Below are positions 13,102 to 41,653 of a stretch of 64,000 bases of DNA, piece after piece. This stretch comes from an uncultured Phycisphaeraceae bacterium. Its GTDB lineage: Bacteria; Planctomycetota; Phycisphaerae; UBA1845. Position 1 is the stretch's first letter. Every line of letters starts with the position of its first letter. Where the stretch lies: positions 12,983-76,982 of the forward strand of contig CAZMVD010000004.1 in the NCBI GenBank assembly GCA_964569425.1. The letters run 5' to 3'. A program made the translations under genes and the position numbers. Under the pieces are notes generated by a model, which saw only the letters and a program-made list of their open reading frames with translations, had not been told where the DNA came from and did not search any database.

Positions 13102-15594
13102 CTACTTCGGCCCGGTGAATTGATTCATCATGTCTCGATAATCAAGCAGGTCGATATCATCATCCTCGTTGAAATCAAACACGATGGAACATTCCTGCGG
13201 GGGTGCGCCGTAGCCGGGGTCGGTGTTGCTACCGCTGAAGCACGTCTGGAGCGTGGCGAGGTCGCGCAGATCCAAAGAACCATTGGCGTCGGCATCTCCC
13301 AGCAAGCATCCCTGGTAGCACGCGGCGGGGACGCAATCGGGCGTGCCACCGTCATCCAGACAATTGTGCAGGGGGTAGTCGGGGAAACAGATGGTCCCGT
13401 CGAACCAGCAACAAAGGCCCAATGCGGGGCATTGGCACTGCACGTCGATGGGCACCAGAGGACAGCGGTCGAAGCAGTCGGGCACGCCGTCGCCGTCGGT
13501 GTCTTCCATCACGTCGCAATCGTCGGGGATGCCGTCGCCGTCGCAGTCCGGCTCGCAGCCGTCGGGCACGCCGTTTTCGTTGCAGTCGGCGCACCACAGC
13601 TCACCGGGGGGGCAGGTGGCGATGTTGCAGTCATCGGGAATGCCGTTGCCGATGCAGTCGGGTTCGCATTCGTCGGGCATGCCGTTGGCATTGCAGTCGA
13701 GGCTGCCGCCGCAGGGAATTTCGCAACCGGAGGCGCCACAATCGATGTCGCACGCGTCCACGATGCCGTTGCCGTTGCAGTCGATGAGCGGCAGTTGCGG
13801 CCCGACGGAGCGGGCGTAGACCTGCGACGGCATGCCCGGCTTGAACAGGCCAATGGTTACGGTGGTGGGCGTGGGCGGCAGATCGGTATCGAACCAGAAG
13901 GCGTACGACGTGCCAAACCGGATCGCGTTGGCGTTGGGGTTCACCTGGTAGGGCGTGGTGGACCAGGTCAACGCGTCGGCCGAAATGCTTGGCGCCCAGT
14001 CGGTGCCGTCGTACACCTCGCCGCTGTGGTATTCGACGTCACGGAAACCGACGTTGGCAATCACCGACGTGGGGGAGACGGGCACGCTGAACCGCCCGGC
14101 TGAGCGGTCGGAGTTCAAATTCTGCAAGGCATAGGAGTATCGCCACACGCCGGCGGTGGGCGAAAAGGCTTTGACGGCGAGAATGAAAAGACCCTCCCCG
14201 GGAATCTGCACGTCGGTTTCCTCGACGCCGGGGTCGACGTCGCGCCAGGCGCGTACTGCCGGTCGTCCGCGCTGGGTGGCGAAGGCGCCGTCGGTCAACA
14301 TTTCGTAGAATCCCTGGGGCGTCTTGATCACCAGCACTTCGCGATAGGACGCATTGTTGTTGTGGGTACCGGCAAGGGCGTCATCAGGGTTGACATAATG
14401 GCCCTGCACAAAATAGCGCGCGCCCTCGTTGAACAGTGGTTCAAGATCGCCGTGACGAATCAGCAGTCTGCGATCAAGTCCGGAGGTAGGCGCCGGATTG
14501 CTCCAACCTGACCACGGATAAGGAAAGTACCCTGTATGGGCGTTCACCGTCGAGTTGGGGCTCATGTTGGTCTGCACCACGTTGAGACTGGCGCTATAGG
14601 GATCGGAGCAGCCCACGCCGAGGGCTTGCCCCCCTTCGACGGGGTCGTTGCACGGACCGCAAAGGTCCTGGGACACGGCGTAGAAACCGTGCTTGACCCA
14701 GCTCAGACCGATCTGCTCGAAGCGATTGTCCTTCAATCGGTAGGCATTCTGCACAATCACCGGATGCTGGTTGGTGATGGCGATCCAGTTGGCGCGCTGC
14801 GTGCCCAGGTTGCAGGCGGTGGTGCCAACGCCGTAAGCACTGATGCCGCCTTCGGTGGCGAATCTTCTGACGCTTTGCAGATCCGCCACGACGACGTCCG
14901 GCCCCACCGAGGCTGCCACATTCTCGCCGCCGGCCAACGCGGAGGGCACCATACAACCGGGCGCGGAAGGTGCTCCGCCCAGGGGAACCAGGTGACCGTC
15001 GAAGGAGAGTGAACCGGCGGTGGCGCCCCGTGGCGAAGCCGACCCGGGTGCATCGGCCCAGTCGCCCGTGATGACCAACTCCGCGGCGAGGCGCAACTCG
15101 CTGCGCTGCGCGTTGCCCTCGAGCAGCAGAGAATCGAGCTCGAACAATTCGATCTTCGGTCCTCCGTCGGCCCGCGCGACAACGAACAGGCCGCCATGGG
15201 AAGCCACTTCAATGGCGAGCTGGTCGAGTACCACGCGGCGCCCAGCCAGGTTCCCGAGAAAAGCGCCGCGAATCGGCAGTACGCCCTCCACCACACGCAG
15301 GGGGGCGCCGGCCTTCACTTCGAACTCCAGGGTGGCGCCGCCTGATACGACAAAGTCAACGTGACCTTCCTCCAGGAGTTGGTCTTCATCCTGGGCGGCG
15401 GCAACGAGTTCGAAGCCGAACTGTTCAAACAACGCGGGAAACCACTCGATGTGCAATTCACCGTCGCAGGCCAGGAAGTGTTCAGCGCTGCGCGATGACA
15501 CGAACGGTTCTTGCATTTGCCCCTGGGCGAGGGCGCCGTTGGCCAATAGCGCAATTGACATCAACAGCCGCGGCTCAGTCCAACGATGCCACAT
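13102..15594 (-). CDS. Secreted protein: ~600-aa unknown N-terminal domain, Cys-rich DCNxNGxPDxC repeat array, C-terminal dockerin-like module, 830 aa
   Basis: ATG at 15594 has an AAGGAG SD. The track ORF opens 18 nt earlier at a TTG. Signal peptide MWHRWTEPRLLMSIALLANGALAQG. The Cys-rich repeats and the C-terminal GDADANGSLDLRDLATLQTCFSG...FNEDDDIDLLDYRDMMNQFTG are readable in the translation. I do not recognise the N-terminal domain (QHPVIVQNAYRLKDNRFEQIGLSWVKHGFYAV...GCSDPY). Confidence 0.72.
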   Translation of the reverse strand: MWHRWTEPRLLMSIALLANGALAQGQMQEPFVSSRSAEHFLACDGELHIEWFPALFEQFGFELVAAAQDEDQLLEEGHVDFVVSGGATLEFEVKAGAPLRVVEGVLPIRGAFLGNLAGRRVVLDQLAIEVASHGGLFVVARADGGPKIELFELDSLLLEGNAQRSELRLAAELVITGDWADAPGSASPRGATAGSLSFDGHLVPLGGAPSAPGCMVPSALAGGENVAASVGPDVVVADLQSVRRFATEGGISAYGVGTTACNLGTQRANWIAITNQHPVIVQNAYRLKDNRFEQIGLSWVKHGFYAVSQDLCGPCNDPVEGGQALGVGCSDPYSASLNVVQTNMSPNSTVNAHTGYFPYPWSGWSNPAPTSGLDRRLLIRHGDLEPLFNEGARYFVQGHYVNPDDALAGTHNNNASYREVLVIKTPQGFYEMLTDGAFATQRGRPAVRAWRDVDPGVEETDVQIPGEGLFILAVKAFSPTAGVWRYSYALQNLNSDRSAGRFSVPVSPTSVIANVGFRDVEYHSGEVYDGTDWAPSISADALTWSTTPYQVNPNANAIRFGTSYAFWFDTDLPPTPTTVTIGLFKPGMPSQVYARSVGPQLPLIDCNGNGIVDACDIDCGASGCEIPCGGSLDCNANGMPDECEPDCIGNGIPDDCNIATCPPGELWCADCNENGVPDGCEPDCDGDGIPDDCDVMEDTDGDGVPDCFDRCPLVPIDVQCQCPALGLCCWFDGTICFPDYPLHNCLDDGGTPDCVPAACYQGCLLGDADANGSLDLRDLATLQTCFSGSNTDPGYGAPPQECSIVFDFNEDDDIDLLDYRDMMNQFTGPK
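13460..13785 (-). repeat. Coding repeat array: about six copies of a short Cys/Asp motif (DCNxNGxPDxCE/D, thrombospondin-type-3-like) inside the 830-aa protein
   Basis: Translation reads IDCNGNGIVDACDID...DCNANGMPDECEPDCIGNGIPDDCNI...DCNENGVPDGCEPDCDGDGIPDDCDV..DTDGDGVPDCFDRC. The underlying GC-rich periodic DNA explains the pile-up of spurious ORFs in all frames at 13350-13850. Confidence 0.65.
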
Positions 15595-16085
15595 GATCAA
15601 CTCCTTGACCAAACGGTCCGCTCCACGGTCGACGACGTTACGGAATCCGCGGGCGGGGAATATTGGTCAAAGGGGGGAACGCAGGACGCGCCCGATTTTA
15701 GCACACCGTTGGAGTGATTTCTCAGCTTCTCGATGATGGTGCGATAAGACGGACGGAAGACCCTGCCTGGTTCCTGTTTCCGAGAACCGGAATGCCACAA
15801 GTGCCGATAAGCGAGACGCCGCACGCGCATACCCCCTCCGGGATTTCACAAGCAAGTTTGATGCCACTGAGTGAGTGACCAAATTGGCCGCTGCTTTGCT
15901 CGTGGAATGCGGTTTCGCGCTCGTATCCCGCGGGAGACCAAGCCATGCTTGATCTATGCAGTGGACGCGAATGTTCGACGAACGAGTGACGCCGGGTGAT
16001 TTCGCGCAGTTGGTGCGCGAAATGCCCCAAAGACGCTGCGAGAGCCACTTCCAGTGCCGAAATGCAATCAGGACTTGAAACGGCG

Positions 16086-29014: not shown

Positions 29015-29124
29015 CGGACCATAACGATACTCAGTCGTTCATAACCTTTGCCGAGGTTACCCGTCGAAACGTGTACCCGAGATGGGTTCGGTGTCTCGTC
29101 GAGCGGAGTCTCGAGGGGTATGGT

Positions 29125-30084
29125 ATGCGCATGGCAGGGGCGGAGTTTCAACACGGAAGACGACGAACCCGGGTCACGGCAGAGGTCATCGCAACGGCGT
29201 GTGTGCTGCTCGGCATGGCCGGATGTTCGCCGGATGGGGGGGACTCCCGTCAGGTTGTCGGCCTGTTCGGCCAGCTCGGATTGGGGCCCGGCTGTTTCAG
29301 CTATCCGCGCGCCATTTCGTACGATCCCACGGGGTCGGTGCTGGTGGTGGACAAGTCCGGGCGTATTCAGCGTTTCGATGCCGAAGGCGAATGGCTGGCC
29401 TCGTGGAGGGTTCCGGAAACGGCGTTCGGCAAGCCCGTGGGGCTGGCGGTGCATCCCGACGGGCGGGTGCTGGTGGCGGATACGCATTATCACCGGGTAC
29501 TGATCTACGACCGCGAGGGGCAACTCGCGGGCACTTTCGGAAGCGAGGGACTGGGTGATGGCGCGTTTCAACTGACCACCGACGTGGCGGTGGACGCGGA
29601 AGGGTACCTGTACGTCAGCGAGTACTACGACCAGAACCGCATTACCAAGTGGTCGGCGGACCTGCGATTCGTACAGGCGATGGGGGAGGGTCCGGTGGGG
29701 GGGGTGGAGTTGAACCGCCCGACCGGCCTGGTGATCGATGACGAGCAGACGCTGTGGGTGGCGGATGCGTGCAATCATCGCGTGGTGCGCTTCAGTCGAT
29801 CGGGTGAGTTCCTGAGCACGTTCGGTCGGATGGGGCGGGAGCCGGGCGAGTTGCGCTATCCATATGACATCAGTCTGTCACCTGAAGGGACGCTGCTGGT
29901 GTGCGAATACGGCGGCGATCGATTGCAATGGTTTGACAAAAGCGGGCGTTCGCTCGGCACCTGGGGCCGCAGCGGGCGAAAACCCGGTGAACTGTCGGGG
30001 CCGTGGGGTGCAGTCTACGGGCCGCGCGGGCGGATTTACGTCGTGGACTCCATGAACAGCCGCATTCAGATTGTGCAACCATGA
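29125..30084 (+). CDS. NHL-repeat beta-propeller lipoprotein, 319 aa
   Basis: Lipobox LLGMAGC follows the ATG at 29125 (GAGGGG SD). Six repeats of the NHL pattern are present (YPRAISYDPTGSVLVVD, KPVGLAVHPDGRVLVADT, QLTTDVAVDAEGYLYVSE, NRPTGLVIDDEQTLWVAD, RYPYDISLSPEGTLLVCE, SGPWGAVYGPRGRIYVVD). The stop overlaps the next start (ATGA). Confidence 0.82.
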   Translation: MRMAGAEFQHGRRRTRVTAEVIATACVLLGMAGCSPDGGDSRQVVGLFGQLGLGPGCFSYPRAISYDPTGSVLVVDKSGRIQRFDAEGEWLASWRVPETAFGKPVGLAVHPDGRVLVADTHYHRVLIYDREGQLAGTFGSEGLGDGAFQLTTDVAVDAEGYLYVSEYYDQNRITKWSADLRFVQAMGEGPVGGVELNRPTGLVIDDEQTLWVADACNHRVVRFSRSGEFLSTFGRMGREPGELRYPYDISLSPEGTLLVCEYGGDRLQWFDKSGRSLGTWGRSGRKPGELSGPWGAVYGPRGRIYVVDSMNSRIQIVQP

Positions 30085-33000
30085 TGGCATTGGGCTGGGC
30101 ACTGCCGTTCGACTTCGCCGAGCCGCGGTGGCTGTGGCTGTGCCTGCTCATCCCGGTTTTGGTCGTCGCGTCGCTGCGCAGCCTGGCGGGATTGCAGCCC
30201 TTGCGGCGAGGGATGGCGGTGGCAGCACGCAGTGTGCTCATCGTGCTGCTGGCCTGTTGCCTGGGCGGTGTGGAGCATGTGCGCCGCAACAACGACCTGA
30301 CCGTGATCTACCTGATGGATCGTTCGTACAGCGTTCAAGGTCTGCAGGATGCGCAGGAATCGTTCATTCGCGAGTCCACTCGTTCCATGCCCGCAGACGA
30401 CCGCGTAGGTCTTATCGACTTTGCGCGCCATGCCTACCTCCAGCAGTTGCCCATGCGCGGGGGCTATTTTCTTCCTCCCGGGCGGCTGCCGCCCATGGCC
30501 AACGTGGACCGCACGGATATCGCCGCGGCGTTGCGTCTGGCGATGGCCATGTTTCCGCACGATACCGCCAAGCGGATCGTGCTGATGTCCGACGGCAACG
30601 ACAACATGGGCGACGTGCTTGCCGAGGCGCGCCGTGCCAAGGCCGACGGCATCCCCATCGACGTGGTGCCGTTATGGTACGAGCACCGCAACGAGGTTTA
30701 CGTGGAGCGGCTCATCGCTCCCACTCATGCCGAGCCGGGCGAGCAGGTTCCGCTGCGCATTGTCCTTAACACGCAGCGACCGGTGTCAGGCGTGCTTTCG
30801 ATCTACCGCAATGGGGAACTCGTGGACCTGGCGCCGGACGATCGTCGCGTCCACCTGCGCCCCGGCAGTAATACCTTTTTCCTGAAGCTGCCGTTGCGCA
30901 ACATGACCACTCAGGCCTTCGAGGCGGTGTTCCAGCCCGACGATGACAGCCTCGACGGCATCGCTTTGAACAACCGCGCCCGCGCCTTCACCTTTGTGGC
31001 CGGGGGCAGCCGGGCGCTGCTGGTTACTGCCCATGCCGGCGACGACCTGGCGCTGGCGGAGGCTCTGCAGAGCGAAAACGTGATTGTGGACATGGTGTCG
31101 ATCGACCAGCTCGGGGCGTTCGAACTGGCCGACATGCTCAGTTACGCGAGCATCATCCTGTCCAACATACCTGCGGCGGCGTTTACCGACGATCAGCACC
31201 GCTCGCTGGCCGCGTATGTGAAAGACACGGGGAGCGGACTCATCATGACCGGGGGGGACGAGGGGTTCGGCGCCGGCGGATGGATCGGCAGTCCGGTGGA
31301 AGCGGTCATGCCGGTGTCGTTCGAGATCAAGCACAAGCGGGTTATTCCGAGAGGGGCGCTGGTGCTCATCATGCACAGTTGCGAGATTCCCCGCGGCAAC
31401 TACTGGGCCAAGGAAATGGCCAAGAAAAGCGCCGACACGATCAGCTCGCAGGATTATTTCGGCGTGCTCGCGTACGGTTATTCGCCGCCGGGGGAGAACT
31501 GGGAGGTACCGCTGGATCTTAACACCAACCGCGCGGCGGTGAAGGCCAAGATCGACCGCATGCAAGTCGGCGACATGCCTGATTTCGGGTCCACCCTGCA
31601 GATGGCCTATCGGGAGTTGACGGCCGGGCGCGGCAAGGACGCGGCGCAGAAGCACGTGATCATTCTTAGTGACGGCGATGCGTCACCCCCGGCGCTCAAA
31701 CTGTTGGACGATTACACGGCGGCGAAAATTACGGTGAGCACCATCGGAATCGGCTGGGGGGCTCACGTGATGGAGGGCACCATGCGGCACATTTCCGAGA
31801 GGACCGGCGGCAAGTACTACGCGGCCCGAAACCCCAGGCAGCTCCCGCAGATCTTCACCAAGGAATCCAAAGTGGTTCGTCGACCGCTGATCATCGAGGA
31901 ACCGTTCGTGCCTCGGGTTGCTCAGGCCCACAGCGCACTGCTCGCCGGGATCGACGTGGGCGAGACGTTGCCGCCGCTCGGCGGCATGGTGCTCACCTCA
32001 CCCAAGCAGAGCCCCAATGTACTCATGCCGCTGGTGCGTTCCACCGACGACGGCGCCGATCCGGTGCTTGCCCATTGGCAATACGAACTGGGCAAGACCG
32101 TGGCGTTTGCCGGGGGCTACTGGCCGCGCTGGGGCGAAGCCTGGACCCGCTGGCCGAAGTTTGCGAAGTTCTGGGCACAGGTGGTCCGCTGGACCATGCG
32201 ACAGGAATCGCCGGCCAACTTCGACACCTACACGAAGGTAGAGGGCCAGCAGGGCCGCATCGTGATCGACGCCCTGGACAAGAACGCCGCCTACCTCAAC
32301 AACCTGGTGCAGCGCGCCCGCGTGGTGGGACCGGACAACGAGGAAATACCCTTGCAGTTCCGGCAGACGGGGCCCGGGAAATACGAGGCCACCTTCGACG
32401 CGGAAAAGGCCGGCCAATACCTGGCCACCGTGCAGATTTTCGACGGGGGGAGAAATCTGGGGACGCTGCGCACCGGGCTGGCGGTGCCCTTCTCGCCCGA
32501 GTATCGCGACCTGCGCCCCAACGAGGGAATGCTGCGGCAGATTGCGGAGATATCGGGCGGGCGCTGGCTGGACCTGCCCCCGCAGCAGGCGGACGTGTTT
32601 CGCCACGATCTTCCGCCGACCGAATCGCGCCGGCCGGCGTGGGATTGGGTGCTCGCCTGGCTGGTGCTCCCGGCATTCCTGCTTGACGTGGCCGTCCGCC
32701 GGCTGGCGAGCATGTTAGCGCTGTCGATCGTGGTCGAGGTGGTGCTGCTGGTGGTGCTGCTGATCGGGTGCGACGTGCGGTCCAGCGGCTGGTGGGGCAT
32801 TCTCGGGGCGTTCGTATTCGCCGAGGTGATCGGATGGACGATGCGCGCCCGCTACATCCGTCCGCTGTTTGAATATCTGACGCACGGTGCGACGGCCCTG
32901 GCGCAGGCCGGGGAACGCAGCGCGGTGGCTTTGGACAAGCTCAAGACCACACGCGAGAAGGTGCGCGAAGGAACTCGCGGCGGTGACGACGAAGGCACCA

Positions 33001-33257
33001 GAGATCCTGGCGCCGCCGACGGCGCTGCGGTCCGCGCGGCGCGGCGCTTTGACGCCGGGGAACAGGTGGCGCCGGGCAGCGGCGTTTCATTGGAGGATTC
33101 GCTGGGGGCGGCCGGGGCGCGCGAGAGTGAATCGCAGGGTCCATCTCGCCGACCGCCTGTCGGCCTCCCCAAGCAGGCCGATGAAGAAACCACCTCGCGC
33201 CTGCTGCGTGCCAAACGCCGCGCCCAGCGAGATCGGGAAGACCAGGGCGACAGGTGA
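30081..33257 (+). CDS. Large BatA-like membrane protein with two VWA domains, a GATase1/ThuA-like central domain, C-terminal TM helices and a charged tail, 1058 aa
   Basis: The N-terminal aerotolerance-regulator-type segment is FAEPRWLWLCLLIPVLVV plus a second TM. VWA 1 reads VIYLMDRSYSV...LMSDGNDN. The central part is ILSNIPAAAFTDDQHRSLAAYVKDTGSGLIMTGG. VWA 2 reads HVIILSDGDASPP...TVSTIGIG. The C-terminal TM pair is followed by an Arg/Asp/Glu-rich tail. Confidence 0.8.
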   Translation: MMALGWALPFDFAEPRWLWLCLLIPVLVVASLRSLAGLQPLRRGMAVAARSVLIVLLACCLGGVEHVRRNNDLTVIYLMDRSYSVQGLQDAQESFIRESTRSMPADDRVGLIDFARHAYLQQLPMRGGYFLPPGRLPPMANVDRTDIAAALRLAMAMFPHDTAKRIVLMSDGNDNMGDVLAEARRAKADGIPIDVVPLWYEHRNEVYVERLIAPTHAEPGEQVPLRIVLNTQRPVSGVLSIYRNGELVDLAPDDRRVHLRPGSNTFFLKLPLRNMTTQAFEAVFQPDDDSLDGIALNNRARAFTFVAGGSRALLVTAHAGDDLALAEALQSENVIVDMVSIDQLGAFELADMLSYASIILSNIPAAAFTDDQHRSLAAYVKDTGSGLIMTGGDEGFGAGGWIGSPVEAVMPVSFEIKHKRVIPRGALVLIMHSCEIPRGNYWAKEMAKKSADTISSQDYFGVLAYGYSPPGENWEVPLDLNTNRAAVKAKIDRMQVGDMPDFGSTLQMAYRELTAGRGKDAAQKHVIILSDGDASPPALKLLDDYTAAKITVSTIGIGWGAHVMEGTMRHISERTGGKYYAARNPRQLPQIFTKESKVVRRPLIIEEPFVPRVAQAHSALLAGIDVGETLPPLGGMVLTSPKQSPNVLMPLVRSTDDGADPVLAHWQYELGKTVAFAGGYWPRWGEAWTRWPKFAKFWAQVVRWTMRQESPANFDTYTKVEGQQGRIVIDALDKNAAYLNNLVQRARVVGPDNEEIPLQFRQTGPGKYEATFDAEKAGQYLATVQIFDGGRNLGTLRTGLAVPFSPEYRDLRPNEGMLRQIAEISGGRWLDLPPQQADVFRHDLPPTESRRPAWDWVLAWLVLPAFLLDVAVRRLASMLALSIVVEVVLLVVLLIGCDVRSSGWWGILGAFVFAEVIGWTMRARYIRPLFEYLTHGATALAQAGERSAVALDKLKTTREKVREGTRGGDDEGTRDPGAADGAAVRAARRFDAGEQVAPGSGVSLEDSLGAAGARESESQGPSRRPPVGLPKQADEETTSRLLRAKRRAQRDREDQGDR

Positions 33258-33341
33258 AGTTGCAGACTCGAACGCGAGTGATATTGCGGTTGGACCGGCC
33301 GGCCTGAAAGCCCGCCGCCACGCGAGAGAAAGGAAAGACCC

Positions 33342-34358
33342 ATGGCTACGACCGTTGATCCCGCCATTCAAAAGGCCACCGAAGAATTTCGTCACAAGTT
33401 CAAAACGCTTCGCGACGAGATTGGCAAGGCCATCGTCGGTCATGCAGAAGTGATCGACGGCGTACTTACGGCGCTGTTCGTCGGCGGGCACGTGCTGCTC
33501 GAAGGCGTGCCCGGACTGGGCAAGACTTACCTGATCCGCACGTTGGCGCAGGCGCTCGATCTTCAGTTCTCGCGCATCCAGTTCACGCCCGACCTGATGC
33601 CCGCGGACATCATCGGCACGACGATCATCTCCGAGGACCCCGCCAGCGGAAAGCGTTCCTTCGAGTTTCAGCGCGGGCCGCTCTTCGCCCAGATCGTCCT
33701 CGCCGACGAAATCAACCGTGCCACGCCCAAGACTCAGTCAGCGCTGCTCGAAGCGATGCAGGAGCACACCATCACCGTCGGCGGAACCCGACACGCGCTG
33801 GAAGAGCCATTTTTCGTTATGGCCACCCAGAACCCCATCGAACAGGAAGGCACCTACCCGCTGCCCGAGGCGCAGCTCGACCGCTTCATGTTCAAGCTGG
33901 TGGTCAACTACTCCAGCCGGGAGGAACTCAAGACTATCCTGGAGCGCACCACCACCGGCTATCAGCCGCAGATCAACAAAGTCATGCGCGGCGCGGACAT
34001 CCTGGGCACCCAGCAGTTGGTTCGCCGCGTGGTCATGGCTCCGCACGTGGAAGACTACGCCATTCGCACGGCCATGGCCTCGCACCCCGGCGGGCCGCAC
34101 GCGCTGGACATCACCAACAAATATGTCCGCTGGGGCGTCAGCCCGCGTGCGGTGCAGGCGCTGGCGCTCTCCGCCAAGCTCCACGCGCTGCTCGACGGGC
34201 GCTTCAACGCCAGCTTCAGCGACGTCAAGAAAATGTACCTGCCGGCCATGCGCCACCGCGTGATCCTCAACTTTGAGGGCGAAGCCGAGGGCATCAGCAC
34301 CGATGACGTGCTGCGCGAGATTCTCGATAAGACCCCGACCATGGCCGAGGCGGCGTAG
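33342..34358 (+). CDS. MoxR-family AAA+ ATPase
   Basis: Walker A reads LLEGVPGLGKT and Walker B reads IVLADEINRA. FTPDLMPADIIGT and NPIEQEGTYPLPEAQLDRF are hallmark MoxR strings. Length is 338 aa. Confidence 0.94.
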   Translation: MATTVDPAIQKATEEFRHKFKTLRDEIGKAIVGHAEVIDGVLTALFVGGHVLLEGVPGLGKTYLIRTLAQALDLQFSRIQFTPDLMPADIIGTTIISEDPASGKRSFEFQRGPLFAQIVLADEINRATPKTQSALLEAMQEHTITVGGTRHALEEPFFVMATQNPIEQEGTYPLPEAQLDRFMFKLVVNYSSREELKTILERTTTGYQPQINKVMRGADILGTQQLVRRVVMAPHVEDYAIRTAMASHPGGPHALDITNKYVRWGVSPRAVQALALSAKLHALLDGRFNASFSDVKKMYLPAMRHRVILNFEGEAEGISTDDVLREILDKTPTMAEAA

Positions 34359-34480: not shown

Positions 34481-34912
34481 CTACGGTCCCGTGAATCCCG
34501 CTTGCAGCGCGGCGAAGTCGAGCATGTCCACCGTGCCGCTGCGGTCCACGTCGAAGCACGAACAATCTGCCGGCGGCGGTCCCAGATCGGGCCCGGTGAG
34601 GCAGAGTTCGAACAGTGAATGGTCGGCCAGTGCCACCAGCCCGTCCTCGTCGCAGTCGGCGGGCGGGGTCTGAAACCAGAAGCCGCCAGTCATCTCGAAT
34701 GGCCCGCCTACCATGTCGCCCGCATCCGGTTGGCCGATGGTGCCGGAAAGCTCGAACACGCCGTCGGCACTGGCGCTGCGCATGGCGCCGCCGCCGTCGA
34801 TGGTGGAGCGCGTAATCTCCCACTGCTGAGCGATCGCCGTGACGCCCGCCGTCGCTGCGCACGCCGCAACAACGTTCAGTACGGTCGCTGGCCTGAAAAA
34901 TCGCCTTGCCAT
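34481..34912 (-). CDS. Small secreted protein: GTIGQPDAG...GGFW motif domain plus C-terminal dockerin-like module, 143 aa
   Basis: ATG at 34912 has a GGAGG SD. Signal peptide MARRFFRPATVLNVVAACAATAGVTAIA. Then TIDGGGAMRSASADGVFELSGTIGQPDAGDMVGGPFEMTGGFWF. The C-terminus reads DCDEDGLVALADHSLFELCLTG...DVDRSGTVDMLDFAALQAGFTG. Confidence 0.6.
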   Translation of the reverse strand: MARRFFRPATVLNVVAACAATAGVTAIAQQWEITRSTIDGGGAMRSASADGVFELSGTIGQPDAGDMVGGPFEMTGGFWFQTPPADCDEDGLVALADHSLFELCLTGPDLGPPPADCSCFDVDRSGTVDMLDFAALQAGFTGP

Positions 34913-35013
34913 CCGGTTCCTCCTTTGTTTTTGCCGCACCGGCGTCAGCCCTCGGCGAAGACCAGAGCGATCGGCACGGTGCGGCATCATCAACCTCCGG
35001 CGCTCGTGGACCG

Positions 35014-36513
35014 CTACGGTCGCACCACACGGTACAGGACCGGCCCGGTCGAATTCGTGTTCGTAATCCCCAACAGGTACATATGGTCGCCTTCGAACGC
35101 GATGCCCACCCAGGTGGCCACGTCTTCGTCGGGGACTTCAAACGTCTCGACGACGCGGCCGGTTCCCGGATTGATGCGGGCCACCGATCGGGTGGCCATG
35201 GTGACAAAACCCCACAAGTCAGTCCCATCGAAAGCCAGGCCGCGAACTTCGCGGTTGAAGTCGATCGCCTGATCGAGGACGTCGGGCTCGGCGTTGGAAT
35301 CGACGATCAGGAAAACGAACCGCCCGCCGTTGGCCTGGCCGAAGCCGTGCAACCACAGGCGGTTGGTGGTCGGGACAAAAGCCGCCGCGCGGATGGTGAT
35401 CTGGCGGCTGAGGTCGTTGGCGGTGTGGATGGTGTCGAACACCGTGGTGAGGTTGGAGCGAGAGATATCCGGGCTGCCGCCGCAGGCGCAGTGATGCCAG
35501 AAGTGCGGCGGGATCGCAACCGACTGGGTGGTCTGAATTAAACGACTGTTGGTCGGTGCGAGCGGAGCGATGATCGCGTCGGTCGCGAGATCAAACACCT
35601 CAATCTGGTTGTTGGTCGAGTTGTACACCAGGTCGCCATTGAACAGCACCAGGCCGGAGAAGAACGACGGTACGGGGATGTTCGTAAACAGCTCCACGAC
35701 CTGCAGCGCGCCGCAACTCACGTCTGCCGGCAGGGCATCCTCGCGCGAAAACAACGCGATGTTGCCCGCGCCGTCCGCCAGGCCCAGGAAATCGCCGTCG
35801 ATCACCACGGTGGGGAAGATGTTCGTTCGCTCGGGGTGCAAGCGCAGTGACCGTTCGCGGACGAAGTCGATGAGCAGCGTGTCGTTGTTGTAAAAGAGGT
35901 AGAGTATTCGCACGCAGTCGTTGGTCCCGGTCAATAGGTCGCGGAAGAACACGCGGCCCATGCCGCCGTCGTCCAGGACCATTCCGGTGACTTCGAGATT
36001 GGCGTCAAAGTTGGGCAGCATGATGCCGGACCGAAGCTGCCACGTGCCACGAATCGGCCCGGACGACGACGGTCCGCCGATGGTGGCGGCACGCACCGCG
36101 TGCAGTGCAAAGGGCACCGGCGTCAGCGACTGGCGCGGGCTGAGCGCCGTCAAGGGGCCGCCGGTGGGGTGCGCCACCTCGATCTGCAACCAGCGGGCGC
36201 TACCGTCGAAAGCGGCGGTGCCGAAATCCAGCAGGACGGTGAACAGGCCGTTAACCACCGTAACGGGCGGGTTCCCCGCGCTTCCATCAAAGTTGACCGG
36301 CGAGCCGATCTGAGTGCCGCCGACCGGAGCGTCCCACAGCGTGAACCGGAACCGGCAGGTGTCACTCACCGCGACGCTGTTCCACTTTAGCTGTCCTTGA
36401 TAGGAAAACGCCGTGTTGACCGGCTGCCCAGCCTCGACGACCGCGCCCACCGGCGCGAGCATGAGAGACACCCATACGATCCTCGTTACCCTTCCGGTTC
36501 GAATTGTCTTCAC
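35014..36513 (-). CDS. Secreted protein, family member P1: shared N-terminal FSYQGQL module plus a beta-propeller-like C-terminal domain, 499 aa
   Basis: GTG at 36513 has an AAGGAGAA SD and gives a signal peptide (VKTIRTGRVTRIVWVSLMLAPVGAVVEA). Module: FSYQGQLKWNSVAV...FRFTLWDAPVGGTQIG...VVNGLFTVLLDFGTAAFDGSARWLQIEV...LSPRQSLTPVPFA. The C-terminal ~350 aa are unrelated to P3. Confidence 0.7.
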   Translation of the reverse strand: MKTIRTGRVTRIVWVSLMLAPVGAVVEAGQPVNTAFSYQGQLKWNSVAVSDTCRFRFTLWDAPVGGTQIGSPVNFDGSAGNPPVTVVNGLFTVLLDFGTAAFDGSARWLQIEVAHPTGGPLTALSPRQSLTPVPFALHAVRAATIGGPSSSGPIRGTWQLRSGIMLPNFDANLEVTGMVLDDGGMGRVFFRDLLTGTNDCVRILYLFYNNDTLLIDFVRERSLRLHPERTNIFPTVVIDGDFLGLADGAGNIALFSREDALPADVSCGALQVVELFTNIPVPSFFSGLVLFNGDLVYNSTNNQIEVFDLATDAIIAPLAPTNSRLIQTTQSVAIPPHFWHHCACGGSPDISRSNLTTVFDTIHTANDLSRQITIRAAAFVPTTNRLWLHGFGQANGGRFVFLIVDSNAEPDVLDQAIDFNREVRGLAFDGTDLWGFVTMATRSVARINPGTGRVVETFEVPDEDVATWVGIAFEGDHMYLLGITNTNSTGPVLYRVVRP

Positions 36514-36598
36514 TTCCGTTCTCCTTGATGGAGGTTTACGGTCGGTCCCGCCGCAAGGGTACGAAGTTGGCTCGGGCATTCAGCAGAACCCCATGCCG

Positions 36599-36712
36599 CT
36601 ATAGCTGATCCTGGTAGGTGAACCCTGACCCTAACGGCGCATCGGCCCCGCAAACAAGGGCCACGGACGTTCCAGCGATCAAGATTCCCGGTTTTTTCTT
36701 ATGTGTTCTCAT
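36599..36712 (-). pseudogene. 37-codon 5' remnant of a family member (signal peptide plus GFTYQDQL, then TAG)
   Basis: ATG at 36712 with a GGAGA SD gives MRTHKKKPGILIAGTSVALVCGADAPLGSGFTYQDQL-stop. Its end (ADAPLGSGFTYQDQL) closely parallels P4 (ADALLGSGFTYQEQL). The codon where the paralogues have K is TAG. Confidence 0.45.
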
Positions 36713-36770
36713 CTTCTGTTTCTCCGTTACAGAACCCTTGTTCCAATCTGTAAAATCTCCGCTTTGGGCG

Positions 36771-38561
36771 CTACTTGGCACGGGCGCAGATCACCCAGGC
36801 TCTGGTTGCGCCGGGGCTATCTTCTATTCCTGAGCTGTCCTTCTCACAGTACCATCCTGTCGGCGCCCCGGAGGAGCCACCAAATGCGTTGGGAATCGGC
36901 TCCGAGTGTGAGACCCCTCGACAGCAACTGTGAGCGCTGCAGCCCCCCCCAAGGGCGACTTTGCCAGGAGGACATTGAGCGGTGCATGTCAAGCTATTGT
37001 TGCAGAATTCGGCGATGGTTTCGATGCCGATGTCCAACACGCCGCTGACGTGGGCGTCGCCGGCGACGTGCAGACCGTTCGTGGGTGGCGTCGTCACGTT
37101 GGCTCCAACCGAAACGCCGCCGGTCGAGGCCACCAGAAGCTTGGTGGCGCCACCGATCTGCACGCGCAGCGCGTGATTGCCCGAGGGGACGTTGACGTGC
37201 AGGCGGGAATTGGGTGAGGACACGCCGACGCCGACGTTGCCTCCGCCGCTGGCCAGGGTAACGTCGCCGCTGGAGTTGCTGTTGAGCCGCAGCGACACGG
37301 GACCGATCGCAAACGGCGGTACCGAATCGCGACTGTAGGCATCAATCTCGCGCCCGTCGATTTCCGTGCGATAGGACGGCCCCAGAACGGTGCCCCCGGC
37401 GGTCGTACTGCGCGAAAAGAGACCTCCCGGCCCCGGCGCGTCGGCGGCTCTGCTGGCCGAGATCGTCCCTGACGATTCAATCCCCGATCCGCTGTCGTTT
37501 CCAATGACGCGAACACGCCCCTCGAAATAGCCGGCCCAGCCGCTGCTGCCCGAGGCCTCGCCGAAGATACCCACGCCATTGCCCTCGTGGGATCCGCGGA
37601 TGCCGTAACCATTGGCGGCGGTACCGAAGTTTCGGCCCCAGACCCCAGCCGAGCGGGCACCGGGCGTGGTGCTATTGATGAATCCGCGAACACCGGCGGC
37701 GTCGTTGGATGTAGAGTTGGTTTCGCCCTGAACGCCTGGAAAGGTCCCGGATGCCGTGTGAATCCCGCGAATAGTGATCCAGTTGTTCTCGGCGTAGACC
37801 ATCGAAATGTTGTTCGGGCCGGTGATGTGCAGCCTGTGCAGTGGATCGGCTACGCCGATGCCCAACCGCCCGTCGTTGGTCAGACGCATCAGTTCATTGT
37901 CCGCGCCACTCGCTCCGGCGTGAAAGCGGACGCCACCGGTACCGCCGTCATGGTTGATGAAGACGGCCCCGTCCTGGCTGGCGTTGAGAACGAGGTTGTT
38001 GGCCGCCGAACCGCGAATCGACGGACGGGTCGGGTTGTTCACGCCGCCGCTGTAAAGATCCAGGTTGTTTCCGATACTGAGGTGCTGACGCGGCGAGGTC
38101 GTGCGAATGCCGAGTCTGCCATTGTGAAGGCTGTGAATGTCGTCGCCGTTGGCGGCCCACCATCCGTCGCCGCCGACCACCGGTGCGTTCAAGGCAAACA
38201 GCGCATAGGGCGCCGGGTTGATCGGCTGGCGGGGTTCGAGCGAAAAGTACGACCCAAAGGAATCCTTCAGCTCAATCTGAAGCCAGCGAGGATTGCCGTC
38301 GAACGCGCCAATACCGAAGTCCAGATCGACCTGGAACAAGCCGTTGACCACGTCCAACGGATCCACTTCGATCGCCGATCCGATCACGAGTCCATGGCTG
38401 GCCGTGGACCAGAGCGAGAAACGCATGGCCGTCGGCTCGCTAACCGGCACGCCCCCCTGCTTGAGCTGCCCCTGATAGGTGAACGACCTGGCCGAAACCG
38501 GCAGCTGCCAGCCCAAAGCCGTTACTAGAAAGGCCGAAAGAGTGCTGAGTTTCTTGCCCAT
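36771..38561 (-). CDS. Secreted protein, family member P3: shared N-terminal FTYQGQL module plus a tail-fibre-like repeat region and a Cys-rich C-terminal knob, 596 aa
   Basis: GGGAGGAA SD precedes the ATG at 38561. Signal peptide MGKKLSTLSAFLVTALGWQLPVSA. Module: FTYQGQLKQGGVPV...MRFSLWS...VVNGLFQVDLDFGIGAFDGNPRWLQIEL...LEPRQPINPAPYA. It has repeated G-x-(L/V)GIG-x-x-x-P-x-x-x-LH(I/V) motifs (GRLGIRTTSPRQHLSI, GRLGIGVADPLHRLHI, GNVGVGVSSPNSRLHV). The C-terminus reads CPPGKVALGGGCSAHSCC...WYC...WVIC. Confidence 0.75.
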   Translation of the reverse strand: MGKKLSTLSAFLVTALGWQLPVSARSFTYQGQLKQGGVPVSEPTAMRFSLWSTASHGLVIGSAIEVDPLDVVNGLFQVDLDFGIGAFDGNPRWLQIELKDSFGSYFSLEPRQPINPAPYALFALNAPVVGGDGWWAANGDDIHSLHNGRLGIRTTSPRQHLSIGNNLDLYSGGVNNPTRPSIRGSAANNLVLNASQDGAVFINHDGGTGGVRFHAGASGADNELMRLTNDGRLGIGVADPLHRLHITGPNNISMVYAENNWITIRGIHTASGTFPGVQGETNSTSNDAAGVRGFINSTTPGARSAGVWGRNFGTAANGYGIRGSHEGNGVGIFGEASGSSGWAGYFEGRVRVIGNDSGSGIESSGTISASRAADAPGPGGLFSRSTTAGGTVLGPSYRTEIDGREIDAYSRDSVPPFAIGPVSLRLNSNSSGDVTLASGGGNVGVGVSSPNSRLHVNVPSGNHALRVQIGGATKLLVASTGGVSVGANVTTPPTNGLHVAGDAHVSGVLDIGIETIAEFCNNSLTCTAQCPPGKVALGGGCSAHSCCRGVSHSEPIPNAFGGSSGAPTGWYCEKDSSGIEDSPGATRAWVICARAK

Positions 38562-38741
38562 AATGATTCCTCCCTCATGACCTGCCCGGCGTTACAAGAG
38601 CAACCCGCGATGAGTTGTGCGCTCTTTAGCGCAACGTGATCCTCAGAAGAGAATATGCAATCGCCAAGCAAAACCTTCAGAAAAACCCTCGGGTGCTCTT
38701 CAAATCTCCGCAGTCCGCTGGCTAGATTGATCCAGCGATTC

Positions 38742-39398
38742 CTAGTGGCGGGGTCTCCGGCACACACATTTGTCGTCCAGAAAATCAAAGTTAGTCCTAT
38801 AAATAGTCAGTTTCTCCGCGATTACAGAGTTTCTAGGGGGTACAGTCCAATTCTGTGGCGTTTCCACCCGGCGCGCCAATCTTCCGTAGCTTCCGTTGGG
38901 GCGGTCCATGTCGCGGCCCAGATTCGGAGTACCGCAGGTCCAATTGCACTTCTGACCCGAGGTGGCGATTCTGTCACGGAGGCGCTCGCCCGGTGCAGGC
39001 AGTCTTGAGTAGCGGTACGGCCCGGCGCTAAATGGATCGTGCGGGCGGCGGATGGCGATCTGGAGATAGCGGGTTGCACCGTAAGACGCGGCCGCGCCAA
39101 AGGCCAGCTCTACGGAGAACGGGCCGTTGACGACGTCGACATCGTTTATCGCCACCGGGTCGCCGACCTGATTTTCGCCGGTCCACGGCTTGCTACTGCC
39201 GGGGTTGTCACAAAGCGTGAACTCGAAGTCCGCCGAGTCGTTCAGCGGCGCGCCTTCCTGTTTGAGCTGTTCCTGGTAGGTAAATCCTGACCCCAGCAGT
39301 GCATCGGCCTCGGCCGCGGCGCCCGTGAACAATGCCGAAACGGCAAAATGAATAAGAAGTCGTTTCTGGTTCAAGGCTCCCCTCCCTTCACGGTGCAT
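38742..39398 (-). CDS. Secreted protein, family member P4: diverged N-terminal module with a short atypical C-terminus (possibly decaying)
   Basis: GFTYQEQLKQEGAPLNDSADFEFTLCD...VVNGPFSVELAFGAAASYGATRYLQIAI follows a signal peptide (LLIHFAVSALFTGAAAEA). The start is ambiguous: ATG at 39398, or TTG at 39374 which has a GGGAGG SD. The last ~80 codons run into visibly lower-GC DNA and match nothing I recognise. Confidence 0.5.
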   Translation of the reverse strand: MHREGRGALNQKRLLIHFAVSALFTGAAAEADALLGSGFTYQEQLKQEGAPLNDSADFEFTLCDNPGSSKPWTGENQVGDPVAINDVDVVNGPFSVELAFGAAASYGATRYLQIAIRRPHDPFSAGPYRYSRLPAPGERLRDRIATSGQKCNWTCGTPNLGRDMDRPNGSYGRLARRVETPQNWTVPPRNSVIAEKLTIYRTNFDFLDDKCVCRRPRH

Positions 39399-40132
39399 CA
39401 CCCACGCAGGTGTTCGCGTGGCCCGGCCCGAGCAAGTGCTGCGAGAGTCAGATTCTCTCGAAAAAAGCCGGGAAAGTCAATCAAGACCAGAAGACGAATT
39501 ACGTTCATGGACTTGCTCCCATTGCAGTGAATCACGCACTCAGGCGTCACCGTAACTGTGACGTGTCTCATTTAAGGCACTTCCCGGCGCAAGCGATCGG
39601 CCCGCTTATTTGGTGAACCGGCCGTGGAGGCGGACGCCCGAGAGTCCGTCCCGAAAGGCCGTGCACCATGTTACCAAAACGCCCGGCGGCAATGCTACTC
39701 CCCGTGCCCTTCACTTCTTGCCATAGGTCTCTGTGACGCTCGGTAGGAATCCGGGCGGCGTCCGATAACGCGAGTGTCGACCTTTGGCACTTCGCGGGGC
39801 AAGTCGCCGGGCCACTATTGCCCCGAGGCGCGAAAACTGACGCCCGTCCCGGTCTGATTCCCAACGCGGAAGCCACCTTGCAAGATCACCGAACCGACGA
39901 CGAACGTCACGAAGTCGACTTTTTTTGAAAATCTTGTTGAGATGGCTGGACCGGATTGCTAGTCTGGGGTTGTCGTCGGGCCGTCGCCGGCAGCGCCGGA
40001 TCACCAGAACACGTCGTTCTGCACTCGAAGCACAGTGCGGCAACGGGTGGTCCAAAGAGGCCTTTCATCGGCATTGGTCCTTCGCATCTCAGGATATGCC
40101 GGTGGTCTGTTCATAGCGAAGGGAAACGTACC

Positions 40133-41653
40133 ATGGATCATTGGCAAGAAGCGTACCGCAAGCAAGGACGCTCGGCTGAGTTCATCGCCCTGGTACTGGG
40201 CTTGATTCTGGCTGGATGCCATGTCGACACTGGATCGATGAACCCGGGGGACAACGACTTCCTAGGCAACGCAGTGAGCTTTCCCACCAGCGGTGATCGA
40301 ACGATCGTTTCCACGAGCGCCCAAGAAGGCGATCTGATCGTGTTCGGCGACCAGGCGACCGCGGTCGTAAACCGGATGCGGATGAGCCACCCGGAATTTG
40401 TCCTTGACGTTCATTTTGACGCCGCAGCCCGGCCCATTGCCGCTGAACTCGATGGGCTTGTGGTAGAGTTTACGCATCACGATGACGGCACGTTTGACTA
40501 CATCCTGTCAGAAGACGGCGCGGAGATCAGTTCCGGCCACGATCTGGCGCTGCCATCGGTAGGCGCAGCGCTTTCGTCCGTTGACCGACGGGCAAAGTCG
40601 CTGGCGACGTACCAGGATAGTTCGCTGGACCTGTTGTTGTGCGCGGGAGATCGAGTCAACAGGGTCGCACGCGAGGAGTGCGGCCGAAGGGGGCAACTTG
40701 TTTCCGGGGACGATTTCGACCTGGCTTTGCAAATGCGCGCCGACCGCCAGATGGTCAGCGGTGGTTTACTCCTTTGCGCCCTTGGCCGTGTGGGAGCCAG
40801 AATAGACCAGGATGCGTCGGCCCATTGCGGTAATTGCGCTCAAATCTCCAGTTCCTGCTGCGACCGGATTGATAGCGCCAGGACCGCATTGCTCGCCATT
40901 GTTGTGCTGGTCGAGTACATCATGGGTGAAGCCGCAGCCGGCCTGTTCGACACGAACACGAGCGGCGACCCGTGTCAACCACCTGAGGCATCGCCTCCGC
41001 CGCCTCCGCCTCCTCCCCCACCACCGCGACCCGAGCCGACCACCGATTGCTCCGACGATCGGTGCTTTTACTGCTGGGTCGGCACGCGCTACGAAGGTGC
41101 CTGTCCATCGGTCTTTGACGGCGACGGAACATGCGACTGCGGTTGCCAATTCGATGATAGCGACTGCGCGACCGCTGACGACGAACCACCGGGGGACGAC
41201 GAGCCCGGCGATGATGAACCGCCACCGGCCGTGGGGATGGCCTCGGCCGCGGTCTGTCCCGAGGGGTTCACCATCAACGTCAGCGGAGACCATGTGCCGG
41301 CGCTGCGTGAGGTGGTGTTTCATTCTTTTTTGGAGGATATGCCGTTCTTCGCGCGCTGTTTTTATGTGCGCCGCGACGGTGTCAACCCAGACCGGCTGAT
41401 CGACCTTTCATTGTGGTACCGCCCGCCCAGCGCCGGCACGCCGCACGGCGACTGCGGAAGACGTGACGAGGGAGAGATTGTCACCGGCATCAGCGGTTGC
41501 CGGGAGCGGCGGAGCACGCAACGGACCATTACGGCGGTCTACTGCCTGTCTACGCCAATCGTCGACGGCAACGCCGAGCCCGCGACCGATGCCGTTCTTG
41601 ATGAACTCGTCAGCAACGCCGTGCAGGCCGGCGTCGGCGCCGCGTGCCCATAG
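40133..41653 (+). CDS. Lipoprotein of unknown function with an 11-Pro run and a Cys/Asp-rich segment, 506 aa
   Basis: ATG at 40133 gives a lipobox (LGLILAGC). The internal run is EASPPPPPPPPPPPRPEP. Next comes DCSDDRCFYCWVGTRYEGACPSVFDGDGTCDCGCQFDDSDC and an acidic DDEPPGDDEPGDDEPP linker. Confidence 0.6.
   Translation: MDHWQEAYRKQGRSAEFIALVLGLILAGCHVDTGSMNPGDNDFLGNAVSFPTSGDRTIVSTSAQEGDLIVFGDQATAVVNRMRMSHPEFVLDVHFDAAARPIAAELDGLVVEFTHHDDGTFDYILSEDGAEISSGHDLALPSVGAALSSVDRRAKSLATYQDSSLDLLLCAGDRVNRVAREECGRRGQLVSGDDFDLALQMRADRQMVSGGLLLCALGRVGARIDQDASAHCGNCAQISSSCCDRIDSARTALLAIVVLVEYIMGEAAAGLFDTNTSGDPCQPPEASPPPPPPPPPPPRPEPTTDCSDDRCFYCWVGTRYEGACPSVFDGDGTCDCGCQFDDSDCATADDEPPGDDEPGDDEPPPAVGMASAAVCPEGFTINVSGDHVPALREVVFHSFLEDMPFFARCFYVRRDGVNPDRLIDLSLWYRPPSAGTPHGDCGRRDEGEIVTGISGCRERRSTQRTITAVYCLSTPIVDGNAEPATDAVLDELVSNAVQAGVGAACP

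Follow-up and report, generated by a model that had tools for sequence, protein, structure and literature searches.

A putative cluster of MAT-like chimeric surface proteins with a conserved small partner gene in an uncultured Phycisphaeraceae bacterium

Genes of the locus and their shared N-terminal module

A 64,000-nucleotide stretch of DNA (the window) from an uncultured Phycisphaeraceae bacterium (UBA1845) carries five consecutive open reading frames (ORFs) on the minus strand at 34481-39401, in the order P4, P3, a remnant, P1 and a small protein referred to here as the partner. An earlier reading of this DNA (the original prediction) had described these ORFs with their strand and positions, and all are present. 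The lower G+C content that it had noted for the spacers is also borne out (0.50-0.55 versus 0.62-0.68). Orthologues of P1 are carried by two Logan metagenome contigs from different sequencing runs, L080 (7.4 kb) and L081 (3.6 kb). The features of the locus are as follows (aa, amino acids).

39398/39401 to 38742, minus strand: P4, 218 aa; signal peptide, degenerate N-terminal module (38955-39296) and 70-aa tail
38561 to 36771, minus strand: P3, 596 aa; signal peptide, N-terminal module (38145-38495), fibre stalk and Cys-rich knob (36771-37151)
ATG at 36712 to TAG at 36599, minus strand: remnant ORF, 37 aa
36537 to 36712, minus strand: remnant region; signal peptide, GSGFTYQDQL, stop codon at 36599-36601, about 20 decayed module codons and a TAA at 36537
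36346 to 36569, minus strand: mosaic segment, 224 bp here versus 10 bp in L080
GTG at 36513 to 35014, minus strand: P1, 499 aa; AAGGAG ribosome-binding site 5' of the start
About 36052-36420 and 35014-36066, minus strand: N-terminal module and beta-propeller-containing head of P1, the head directly after the module with no stalk
34912 to 34481, minus strand: partner gene, 143 aa; signal peptide, core of about 55 aa and dockerin-like/EF-hand-like C-terminal tail
39315 to 39797, minus strand: upstream region and 5' cassette of P4, kept upstream of the single fibre gene of L081 and present twice in L080

P1, P3 and P4 share a module of about 110 aa that directly follows the signal peptide. By BLASTP the module of P1 is 48% identical to that of P3 over 113 aa (E 1.6e-25) and 38% identical to that of P4 over 131 aa (E 1e-17), while the modules of P3 and P4 are 34% identical over 110 aa (E 1e-13). 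The N-terminal similarity on which the original prediction was built is therefore significant on alignment and, at E 1e-13 to 1e-25, far beyond chance. Its description of four genes with a common signal peptide and module holds for the module of three genes; the fourth is a remnant, and the signal peptides are not common to all, those of P1 and P3 being unlike the P4/remnant type. No further copy of the module was detected in the window by tblastn. Downstream of the module P1, P3 and P4 have no mutual similarity, as had been expected of their C-terminal parts.

The module is found in a very large number of proteins. A hidden Markov model (HMM) of the module matches P1 at E 3e-41 and P3 at E 1e-40, with a score of 97 bits for P4 versus 142-144 bits for P1 and P3. 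Of 136 proteins retrieved with P3 as the query, 120 were listed, and 119 of these carry the module at residues ~25-140. A module profile built from 53 sequences (A2) matched 53,139 cluster representatives at E<=1e-3; at E<=1e-30 the number is 10,435. In these cluster matches the module is almost always located just after the signal peptide and is followed by many different C-termini; Pfam domains in the C-terminal parts of homologues include Peptidase_S74, collagen, pectinesterase, beta-helix, Kelch, FGE-sulfatase and the YadA head. A scan of one genome per species gave at least 568 loci, with a best module identity of 53-55%. The module is distributed among Phycisphaerae, other Planctomycetota, Chloroflexota, Verrucomicrobiota, Acidobacteriota and further phyla. 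The locus counts given below refer to 79 related loci carrying module genes, 22 of which contain tandem same-strand arrays of two to five copies within 20 kb. The original prediction had allowed that a module ubiquitous on unrelated proteins would make the tandem arrangement unremarkable, and this is in part what was found: since the module is ubiquitous (53,139 clusters, arrays in 22/79 loci), the tandem arrangement is typical of the family and not special to this genome. The locus is thus a typical member of an enormous family and not a special diversification device.

Neither the module (in the copy of Pfam-A searched here) nor P1, P3 and P4 as whole proteins (Pfam and NCBIfam, nothing above threshold) could be assigned to a named family. 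The AlphaFold2 (AF2) model of the module is a six-strand beta-sandwich with a predicted local distance difference test (pLDDT) score of 88.8. Foldseek found no match to this fold in the PDB at E<=1e-3, and only weak matches among viral proteins (best E 6.6e-4, template modelling (TM) score 0.55). Two or three copies of the module per chain occur in some of the proteins P0121-P0127, with three stretches in P0121 (1039 aa). In some of these multi-copy proteins the best-matching copy is at residues 150-490 and not at the N-terminus, so the domain is not strictly N-terminal. The module may serve to fix the protein to the envelope, as a handle close to the cell.

The head of P1, about 350 aa in length, had been called propeller-like, and structure prediction agrees. 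Its AF2 model (pLDDT 92.3) gave 664 Foldseek matches in the PDB at E<=1e-3, those listed being beta-propellers, and the best superposition was with the five-bladed glutaminyl cyclase 2iwa/2faw (TM 0.61-0.63, root-mean-square deviation 4.2-4.4 A). Searches of the PDB by sequence, with the single sequence or with a profile, returned nothing for the head; the fold search alone identified the propeller. Among 28 homologues of the head, the module is present only in the window protein and two close relatives, while the remaining 25, which are 39-57% identical, are without it. These 25 module-free proteins make P1, on sequence comparison, a true chimera. In the four homologues whose N-termini were inspected (P0271, P0273, P0279 and P0283), a lipobox-like signal peptide and a long linker replace the module. 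The module of P1 would then stand where a lipid anchor and linker stand in these relatives, which fits an anchoring role. The P1-head family (P0271-P0294) consists of proteins of ~400-450 aa of unknown function from Planctomycetota, Gemmatimonadota and others; they keep an H-C-x-C-G-G-S motif and the beta-propeller fold, and have no Pfam or PDB sequence match.

P3 carries a stalk of repeated (E)LMRLT..G.LGIG...P...LH motifs (motif ELMRLTNDGRLGIGVADPLHRLHI), followed by the Cys-rich knob. The tail-fibre-like GIG...P...LH repeats that had been reported for P3 are present and align to a solved fibre, that of Bd2133 (8OND, E 1.6e-6), with a weaker match to 8OML (E 0.02). The stalk also matches PHROG 9942, a tail fibre family, at E 6.5e-6. 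It is common to P0002-P0006 and other proteins, and the knob is weakly common to other module proteins.

P4 is probably a truncated, decaying copy. Its module is changed at near-invariant positions (G to E in FTYQG, W to C, NGLF to NGPF, LDFG to LAFG and PRQ to YRY), and its 70-aa tail has no homologue among ~270 proteins and the 79 related loci. Compared with the 5' ends in L080 and L081, P4 has a nonsynonymous divergence (dN) of 0.44-0.49 and a synonymous divergence (dS) of 1.1-1.6. A Pfam scan at E<=1 found no YadA-type beta-barrel anchor or any trimeric autotransporter adhesin (TAA) domain in P1, P3 or P4.

A joint inside the module

The original prediction had proposed that the locus evolves by recombination at the shared 5' region and had suggested a comparison with related genomes. 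L080 and L081 are 85% identical to the window at the nucleotide level from MoxR (98% aa identity) through the partner (87% aa identity) and the body of P1, with aa identities of 94% (L080) and 93% (L081) in the P1 head. The alignment of this flank ends inside the module, at window position 36345 for L080 (in codons for FTLWDAP) and 36258 for L081, which places a mosaic junction at 36345/36346. Upstream of the joint, the genes of L080 and L081 begin with another signal peptide and another version of the module start, and this alternative 5' start is 68-71% identical to the 5' region of P4. The window has in its place the segment 36346-36569, which holds the decayed end of an old module, a TAA, the ribosome-binding site, the GTG and signal peptide of P1, and module residues 1-27.

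The window still keeps the displaced 5' end. The remnant consists of a signal peptide, nine intact module codons and ~20 decayed codons that run through the stop, as traced by tblastn with P4. The stretch 36570-36650 is 83% identical in nucleotides to L080 4837-4917, the 5' end of P0269. By this comparison the remnant is the orphaned 5' end of the type that is still joined to the P1 orthologue in L080 and L081. Further upstream, 39797-39629 corresponds to L081 633-796 (76%), 39484-39315 to L080 1791-1960 (76%) and 39481-39088 to L080 4667-5061 (71%).

Divergence changes abruptly across the junction, where dS goes from ~0.5 to saturation. For the P1 head of the window versus L080/L081, dN is 0.034/0.038, dS is 0.59/0.35 and their ratio (dN/dS, or omega) is 0.06/0.11. 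For the 3' part of the module the corresponding values are 0.109/0.173, 0.49/0.57 and 0.22/0.30. In the first 57 codons dN rises to 0.71/0.72 and dS to 3.7/saturated, so that omega is not meaningful there.

The gene content of the locus also differs among the three genomes, which have one, two and three module genes between the same flanks. In the window these are P4, P3 and P1, with the remnant between the last two. L080 starts with a fragment that holds only a signal peptide, after which come an S74 fibre of 681 aa, a decayed piece of a module and the P1 orthologue. The single fibre gene of L081 is preceded by a 5' intergenic segment homologous to that upstream of P4 and then by mutS. The S74 fibre of L080 (g1) is unrelated to P3 outside the module and occupies the place of P3 upstream of the P1 orthologue. 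Thus the locus is not static among related genomes, and recombination at the shared 5' region is upheld by the joint inside the module, the jump in dS and the displaced 5' end kept as the remnant. Whichever direction the event took, the joint re-assorted 5' ends and heads. Decayed module fragments seem to be a regular by-product of such rearrangement of the array. The two fragments in L080 lie at 1791-1960 (a signal peptide only) and 4093-4370 (a frameshifted module between intact genes).

An assembly artefact is an unlikely source of the joint, since L080 and L081 are independent of each other and exact identity among the paralogues extends over no more than 11-14 bp. Within the window, the longest exact match among the paralogues is 11 bp, with 70-75% identity over short patches, and the only direct repeat between copies in the locus is 89 nt long at 72% identity. 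Since the paralogues share no more than 11 bp of exact sequence, they are too diverged for homologous recombination today. The variation is seen between genomes that are ~85% identical, which points to occasional historical events and not to a programmed switch. No sign of active or programmed diversification was found, given exact identity of at most 11 bp and the lack of an enzyme for it in the ten neighbouring ORFs scanned. The proposal of a diversifying adhesin locus is thus sustained as to the constant module and the exchangeable C-termini; it is not sustained as to an active or programmed mechanism, and the exchange lies between genomes ~85% identical and not between strains of one population.

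The small partner gene

The partner protein of the window contains a core of ~55 aa with the pattern W.I..T.DGGG...F.L.GTIGQPDAG...GG.F.L.GGFW; in the family the core takes the form W.T.DGGG..Y.L.GTIGQPDAG..GG.Y.L.GGFW. Homologues of the core are present in 49 of the 79 module loci and directly adjoin a module gene in 43 of them. All 57 partner genes that were compared (56 in the 79 loci and that of the window) have the orientation of the closest module gene; 41 of them immediately follow a module gene, most within 130 bp. When the search starts from the partner, two of five independent loci have a module gene directly upstream. The pairing of module and partner spans Phycisphaerae, other Planctomycetota, Chloroflexota, Verrucomicrobiota and Acidobacteriota. 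Two layouts are seen, one in which a fibre gene with its partner occurs twice and one in which three fibre genes share one partner; the latter is found in the window and in L051. The partner family has at least 1620 members, and the few with a source name are called "hypothetical protein". A literature search found no paper containing the sequence motifs.

Selection on the partner and on the P1 head is purifying, with a dN/dS of 0.13-0.16 for the partner against its L080 and L081 orthologues and an omega of 0.06-0.11 for the head. Natural fusions of module and partner were not found among 415 proteins and all locus ORFs. One candidate at 12158-12741 of locus L001, where a truncated module is directly followed by a partner gene, was rejected as a fusion as the partner is in another frame.

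The original prediction had described the small protein as dockerin-tagged and had not noted that its gene is a conserved companion of the module family. Its tail is dockerin-like, and the window protein scores below the Pfam cutoff for Dockerin_1 (PF00404; 19.4-19.9 bits against 22.9). Within the partner family, Dockerin_1 matches 14 of 54 sequences (best E 4.3e-8) and the GC-type dockerin model NF041540 matches 5 of 54. Partners from Chloroflexota are ~100 aa long and have the core only, so the tail is a lineage-specific addition. Anchoring of the cohesin-dockerin kind, known from cellulosomes (NF041540), thus resembles the present case in that the partner tail is like a dockerin/EF-hand calcium-binding module; it differs in that the window partner is below threshold, no cohesin was identified and the Chloroflexota members have no tail. 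Two large proteins encoded elsewhere in the window on the minus strand (10809-13013 and 13102-15612) have dockerin-like domains related to the tail of the partner (35-42% identity by tblastn). The protein at 10809-13013 has an N-terminal Dockerin_1 domain above cutoff (25.8 bits) and a cytochrome c7-like region. The presence of such domains on further large proteins suggests that this organism may use dockerin-based surface attachment, although no cohesin was identified.

A second resemblance is to PamT, the predicted tip pilin of the Pam pilus of the candidate phyla radiation (CPR), in which a "tail fibre-like protein" is consistently located beside the pam operon (bioRxiv 10.64898/2026.03.03.709456). 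PamT and the partner are both small, Sec-exported beta proteins. The PamT model NF058579 weakly matches 28 of 54 partner sequences over profile positions 13-80 (best E 1.7e-5). The window partner scores 11.7-12.2 bits against a cutoff of 240, and part of this match is the signal peptide. Pam pilins or chaperones were not seen here, although no search aimed at them was made. The similarity is best regarded as a lead suggested by the profile and not as membership. PamT-like proteins might be partners of fibre proteins rather than, or besides, pilus tips.

The partner core may work with the N-terminal module while the lineage-specific tail would attach the complex to the envelope. Most likely the partner is an adaptor or anchor; alternatively, by analogy with the chaperones of phage tail fibres, it could be a secreted assembly factor.

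Relation to known fibres and alternative explanations

The closest known kind of system is that of the chimeric mosaic adhesive trimer (MAT) fibres of Bdellovibrio bacteriovorus, described by Caulton et al. in 2024 (PMC10769870). The MAT N-domain has no PDB homologue and is presumed to lie beside the cell surface, where it would bind an unidentified surface element; it precedes trimeric beta-helical fibres and diverse tips that are possibly swapped, a process for which the term "tip swapping" was proposed (PMC10769870). Supplementary Table S3 of that paper lists MAT relatives outside Bdellovibrio, including a planctomycete one, with FGE, collagen-like and beta-helix tips (PMC10769870).

The proteins of the window resemble MAT proteins in several ways. 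In both, the signal peptide leads straight into a conserved, beta-rich N-domain (~110-130 aa) that lacks a PDB homologue, and the C-termini are variable, including both S74 ends and other ends (FGE, collagen-like, beta-helix). The stalk motif of P3 aligns to the solved Bd2133 fibre, while P1 and P4 have no stalk. Several paralogues occur per genome, and some are adjacent. There are also differences. The host here is planctomycete-like and is not a known predator, and the module is abundant in Chloroflexota, Verrucomicrobiota, Phycisphaerae and others. In P1 a propeller is joined directly to the module. A small conserved partner gene is present here, whereas none is mentioned in the MAT paper (PMC10769870).

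Profile comparison is suggestive of homology between the module and the MAT N-domain. Matches to the NCBIfam model NF053851 (Bdello_MAT_N) are weak but consistent: 27 of 53 module sequences align to it in one register, their final third covering profile positions 109-159 (best E 2e-5). The modules of the window score 13.8-19.6 bits (P1 17.2 and P3 13.8, with no match for P4) against a cutoff of 60. The locus would accordingly represent a distant MAT-like branch; membership in the curated Bdellovibrio family fails the score cutoff.

The locus is therefore read, with a probability of about 70%, as a chromosomal cluster of MAT-like chimeric surface proteins accompanied by a conserved small partner gene. 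P1, P3 and P4 would each be exported by a Sec signal peptide, and each exported protein would begin with the same ~110-aa beta-sandwich module, serving as its handle on the envelope. The exchangeable remainder would be a MAT-like stalk and Cys-rich knob in P3, a propeller set on the module in P1 and a decaying stub in P4. The small secreted partner would act together with the module as adaptor or anchor, or alternatively as an assembly factor. The array would have been built and remodelled by occasional recombination inside the module that re-assorted 5' ends and C-termini and left orphan 5' fragments. Surface display, trimerisation, adhesin function, anchoring by the module and the role of the partner are inferences.

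Several points weigh against this interpretation. The NF053851 scores are far below the 60-bit cutoff and the match is confined to the last third of the profile. Without a fibre stalk, P1 may not be a trimeric fibre at all, and surface location, trimerisation and binding rest on inference. The pairing with the partner is not exclusive: a partner gene immediately follows only 39 of the 100 module genes that could be evaluated, and three of the five loci reached from the partner side have no module gene within 6 kb. The distances of module and partner are correlated (r 0.44), significantly so but confounded by phylogeny, and the correlation is not used as evidence of interaction. The contigs L080 and L081 were assembled from short metagenome reads, and the direction of the event is undecidable: a new 5' end was inserted in the window, or a deletion made a hybrid gene in L080 and L081.

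The neighbourhood of the locus bears on the alternatives. Ten neighbouring ORFs of the window were scanned against Pfam; nine match only housekeeping-type or other non-mobile families (MoxR, VWA, Mur ligase, DHQ synthase, TrkA and an NHL propeller) and one has no Pfam match. No phage, integrase, invertase, recombinase or reverse transcriptase gene was found among these ten. Consecutive plus-strand genes at 29071-34358, which encode an NHL-repeat propeller, a VWA/BatA-like protein of 1084 aa and a MoxR AAA+ ATPase, converge on the partner gene. The C-terminal MoxR fragment on L080 is 98% identical in aa to that of the window and marks the stable right flank of the variable locus. On the other side a divergently oriented ORF of 565 aa (39956-41653, plus strand) lies beside P4; its product combines a run of prolines with an acidic D/E-P-P-G repeat, contains many cysteines and has no family match. 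L080 and L081 lack this ORF at the equivalent place, so the left flank is also non-syntenic among the three genomes. A promoter and terminator scan was uninformative, with matches no more numerous than in shuffled sequence; a single sigma-70-like match upstream of P4 (39480-39452) is no more than expected by chance.

The best surviving alternative, itself improbable, is that the locus is an ordinary old cluster of paralogous secreted proteins that is now static, with an unrelated small gene as its neighbour. The divergence of the paralogues (34-48% identity, no more than 11 bp of exact DNA sequence), the size of the module family with its common tandem arrays, and the lack of a recombinase or reverse transcriptase among the ten scanned ORFs are all in keeping with it. 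A static cluster is at odds with related genomes that differ in how many genes they have and in what lies upstream of the P1 orthologue, with the breakpoint and its dS discontinuity inside the module, and with the decayed 5' fragments that two of the three genomes, those of the window and L080, keep between their intact genes. Nor does an unrelated neighbour agree with a partner that adjoins module genes in 43/79 loci of several phyla.

A prophage or tailocin remnant with tail fibres and a tail-fibre assembly chaperone is very unlikely. In phages such as lambda and Mu, a fibre gene is classically followed at once by the small gene for its Tfa-type chaperone, and the partner gene has the corresponding position. 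The fibre repeats, with the PHROG match of the P3 stalk, and the phage-type S74 chaperone-protease at the ends of relatives such as L080 g1 recall phage tail fibres (S74 fibres include T5 pb1 and the K1F endosialidase), as do a constant N-terminal attachment part and exchangeable distal parts. Phage fibres, however, lack the Sec-type signal peptides that P1, P3, P4 and the partner all carry, and the flanks (MoxR, VWA, Mur ligase, DHQ synthase and TrkA) are housekeeping in type, with none of the ten scanned neighbours being phage structural genes. The module has no clear viral structural match, P1 and the partner have no PHROG match, and the partner is not similar to known Tfa families in PHROGs. 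Within the MAT-like interpretation the partner could still be a secreted chaperone.

Least probable of all is a programmed system that varies antigens or host range (pilE/pilS, shufflon or diversity-generating retroelement type) with P4 and the remnant as silent cassettes, since the truncated copy and 5' fragment beside intact genes, and the repeat of the 5' cassette in L080 too, are outweighed by copies too diverged for gene conversion, by the lack of an invertase or reverse transcriptase among the ten scanned ORFs and of long high-identity repeats in a direct-repeat search of the locus, and by fragments that carry stops and decayed sequence, with variation only between genomes ~85% identical. 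Both this and the prophage reading were rejected on the grounds given.

The locus and its relatives have a bearing on both questions left open by the MAT paper, namely what the constant N-domain binds and how tips are exchanged. With respect to exchange, the locus has caught an event, with the joint inside the N-terminal module, the displaced 5' end still present and the P1-type head occurring elsewhere without the module. With respect to binding, the partner that adjoins module genes in 43/79 loci of several phyla is a concrete candidate for the binder of the constant N-domain. A tentative proposal is that the partner is the missing binding partner of the MAT-type N-domain, the two forming a widespread two-component mount for exchangeable adhesive heads on the envelope, with attachment provided by the tail, which is dockerin-like in Phycisphaerae and missing in Chloroflexota. 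If this were true, the mount would be used by non-predatory Planctomycetota, Chloroflexota and Verrucomicrobiota and possibly by CPR bacteria (through PamT-like proteins), and MAT-type fibres would be a general bacterial surface organelle and not a tool of predators. The module is present in more than 50,000 protein clusters, mostly of uncultured non-predatory bacteria, and had no Pfam-A model in the copy searched. On this basis, a single surface-display class could take in many of the proteins that are now annotated as "hypothetical" or "tail fiber domain-containing".

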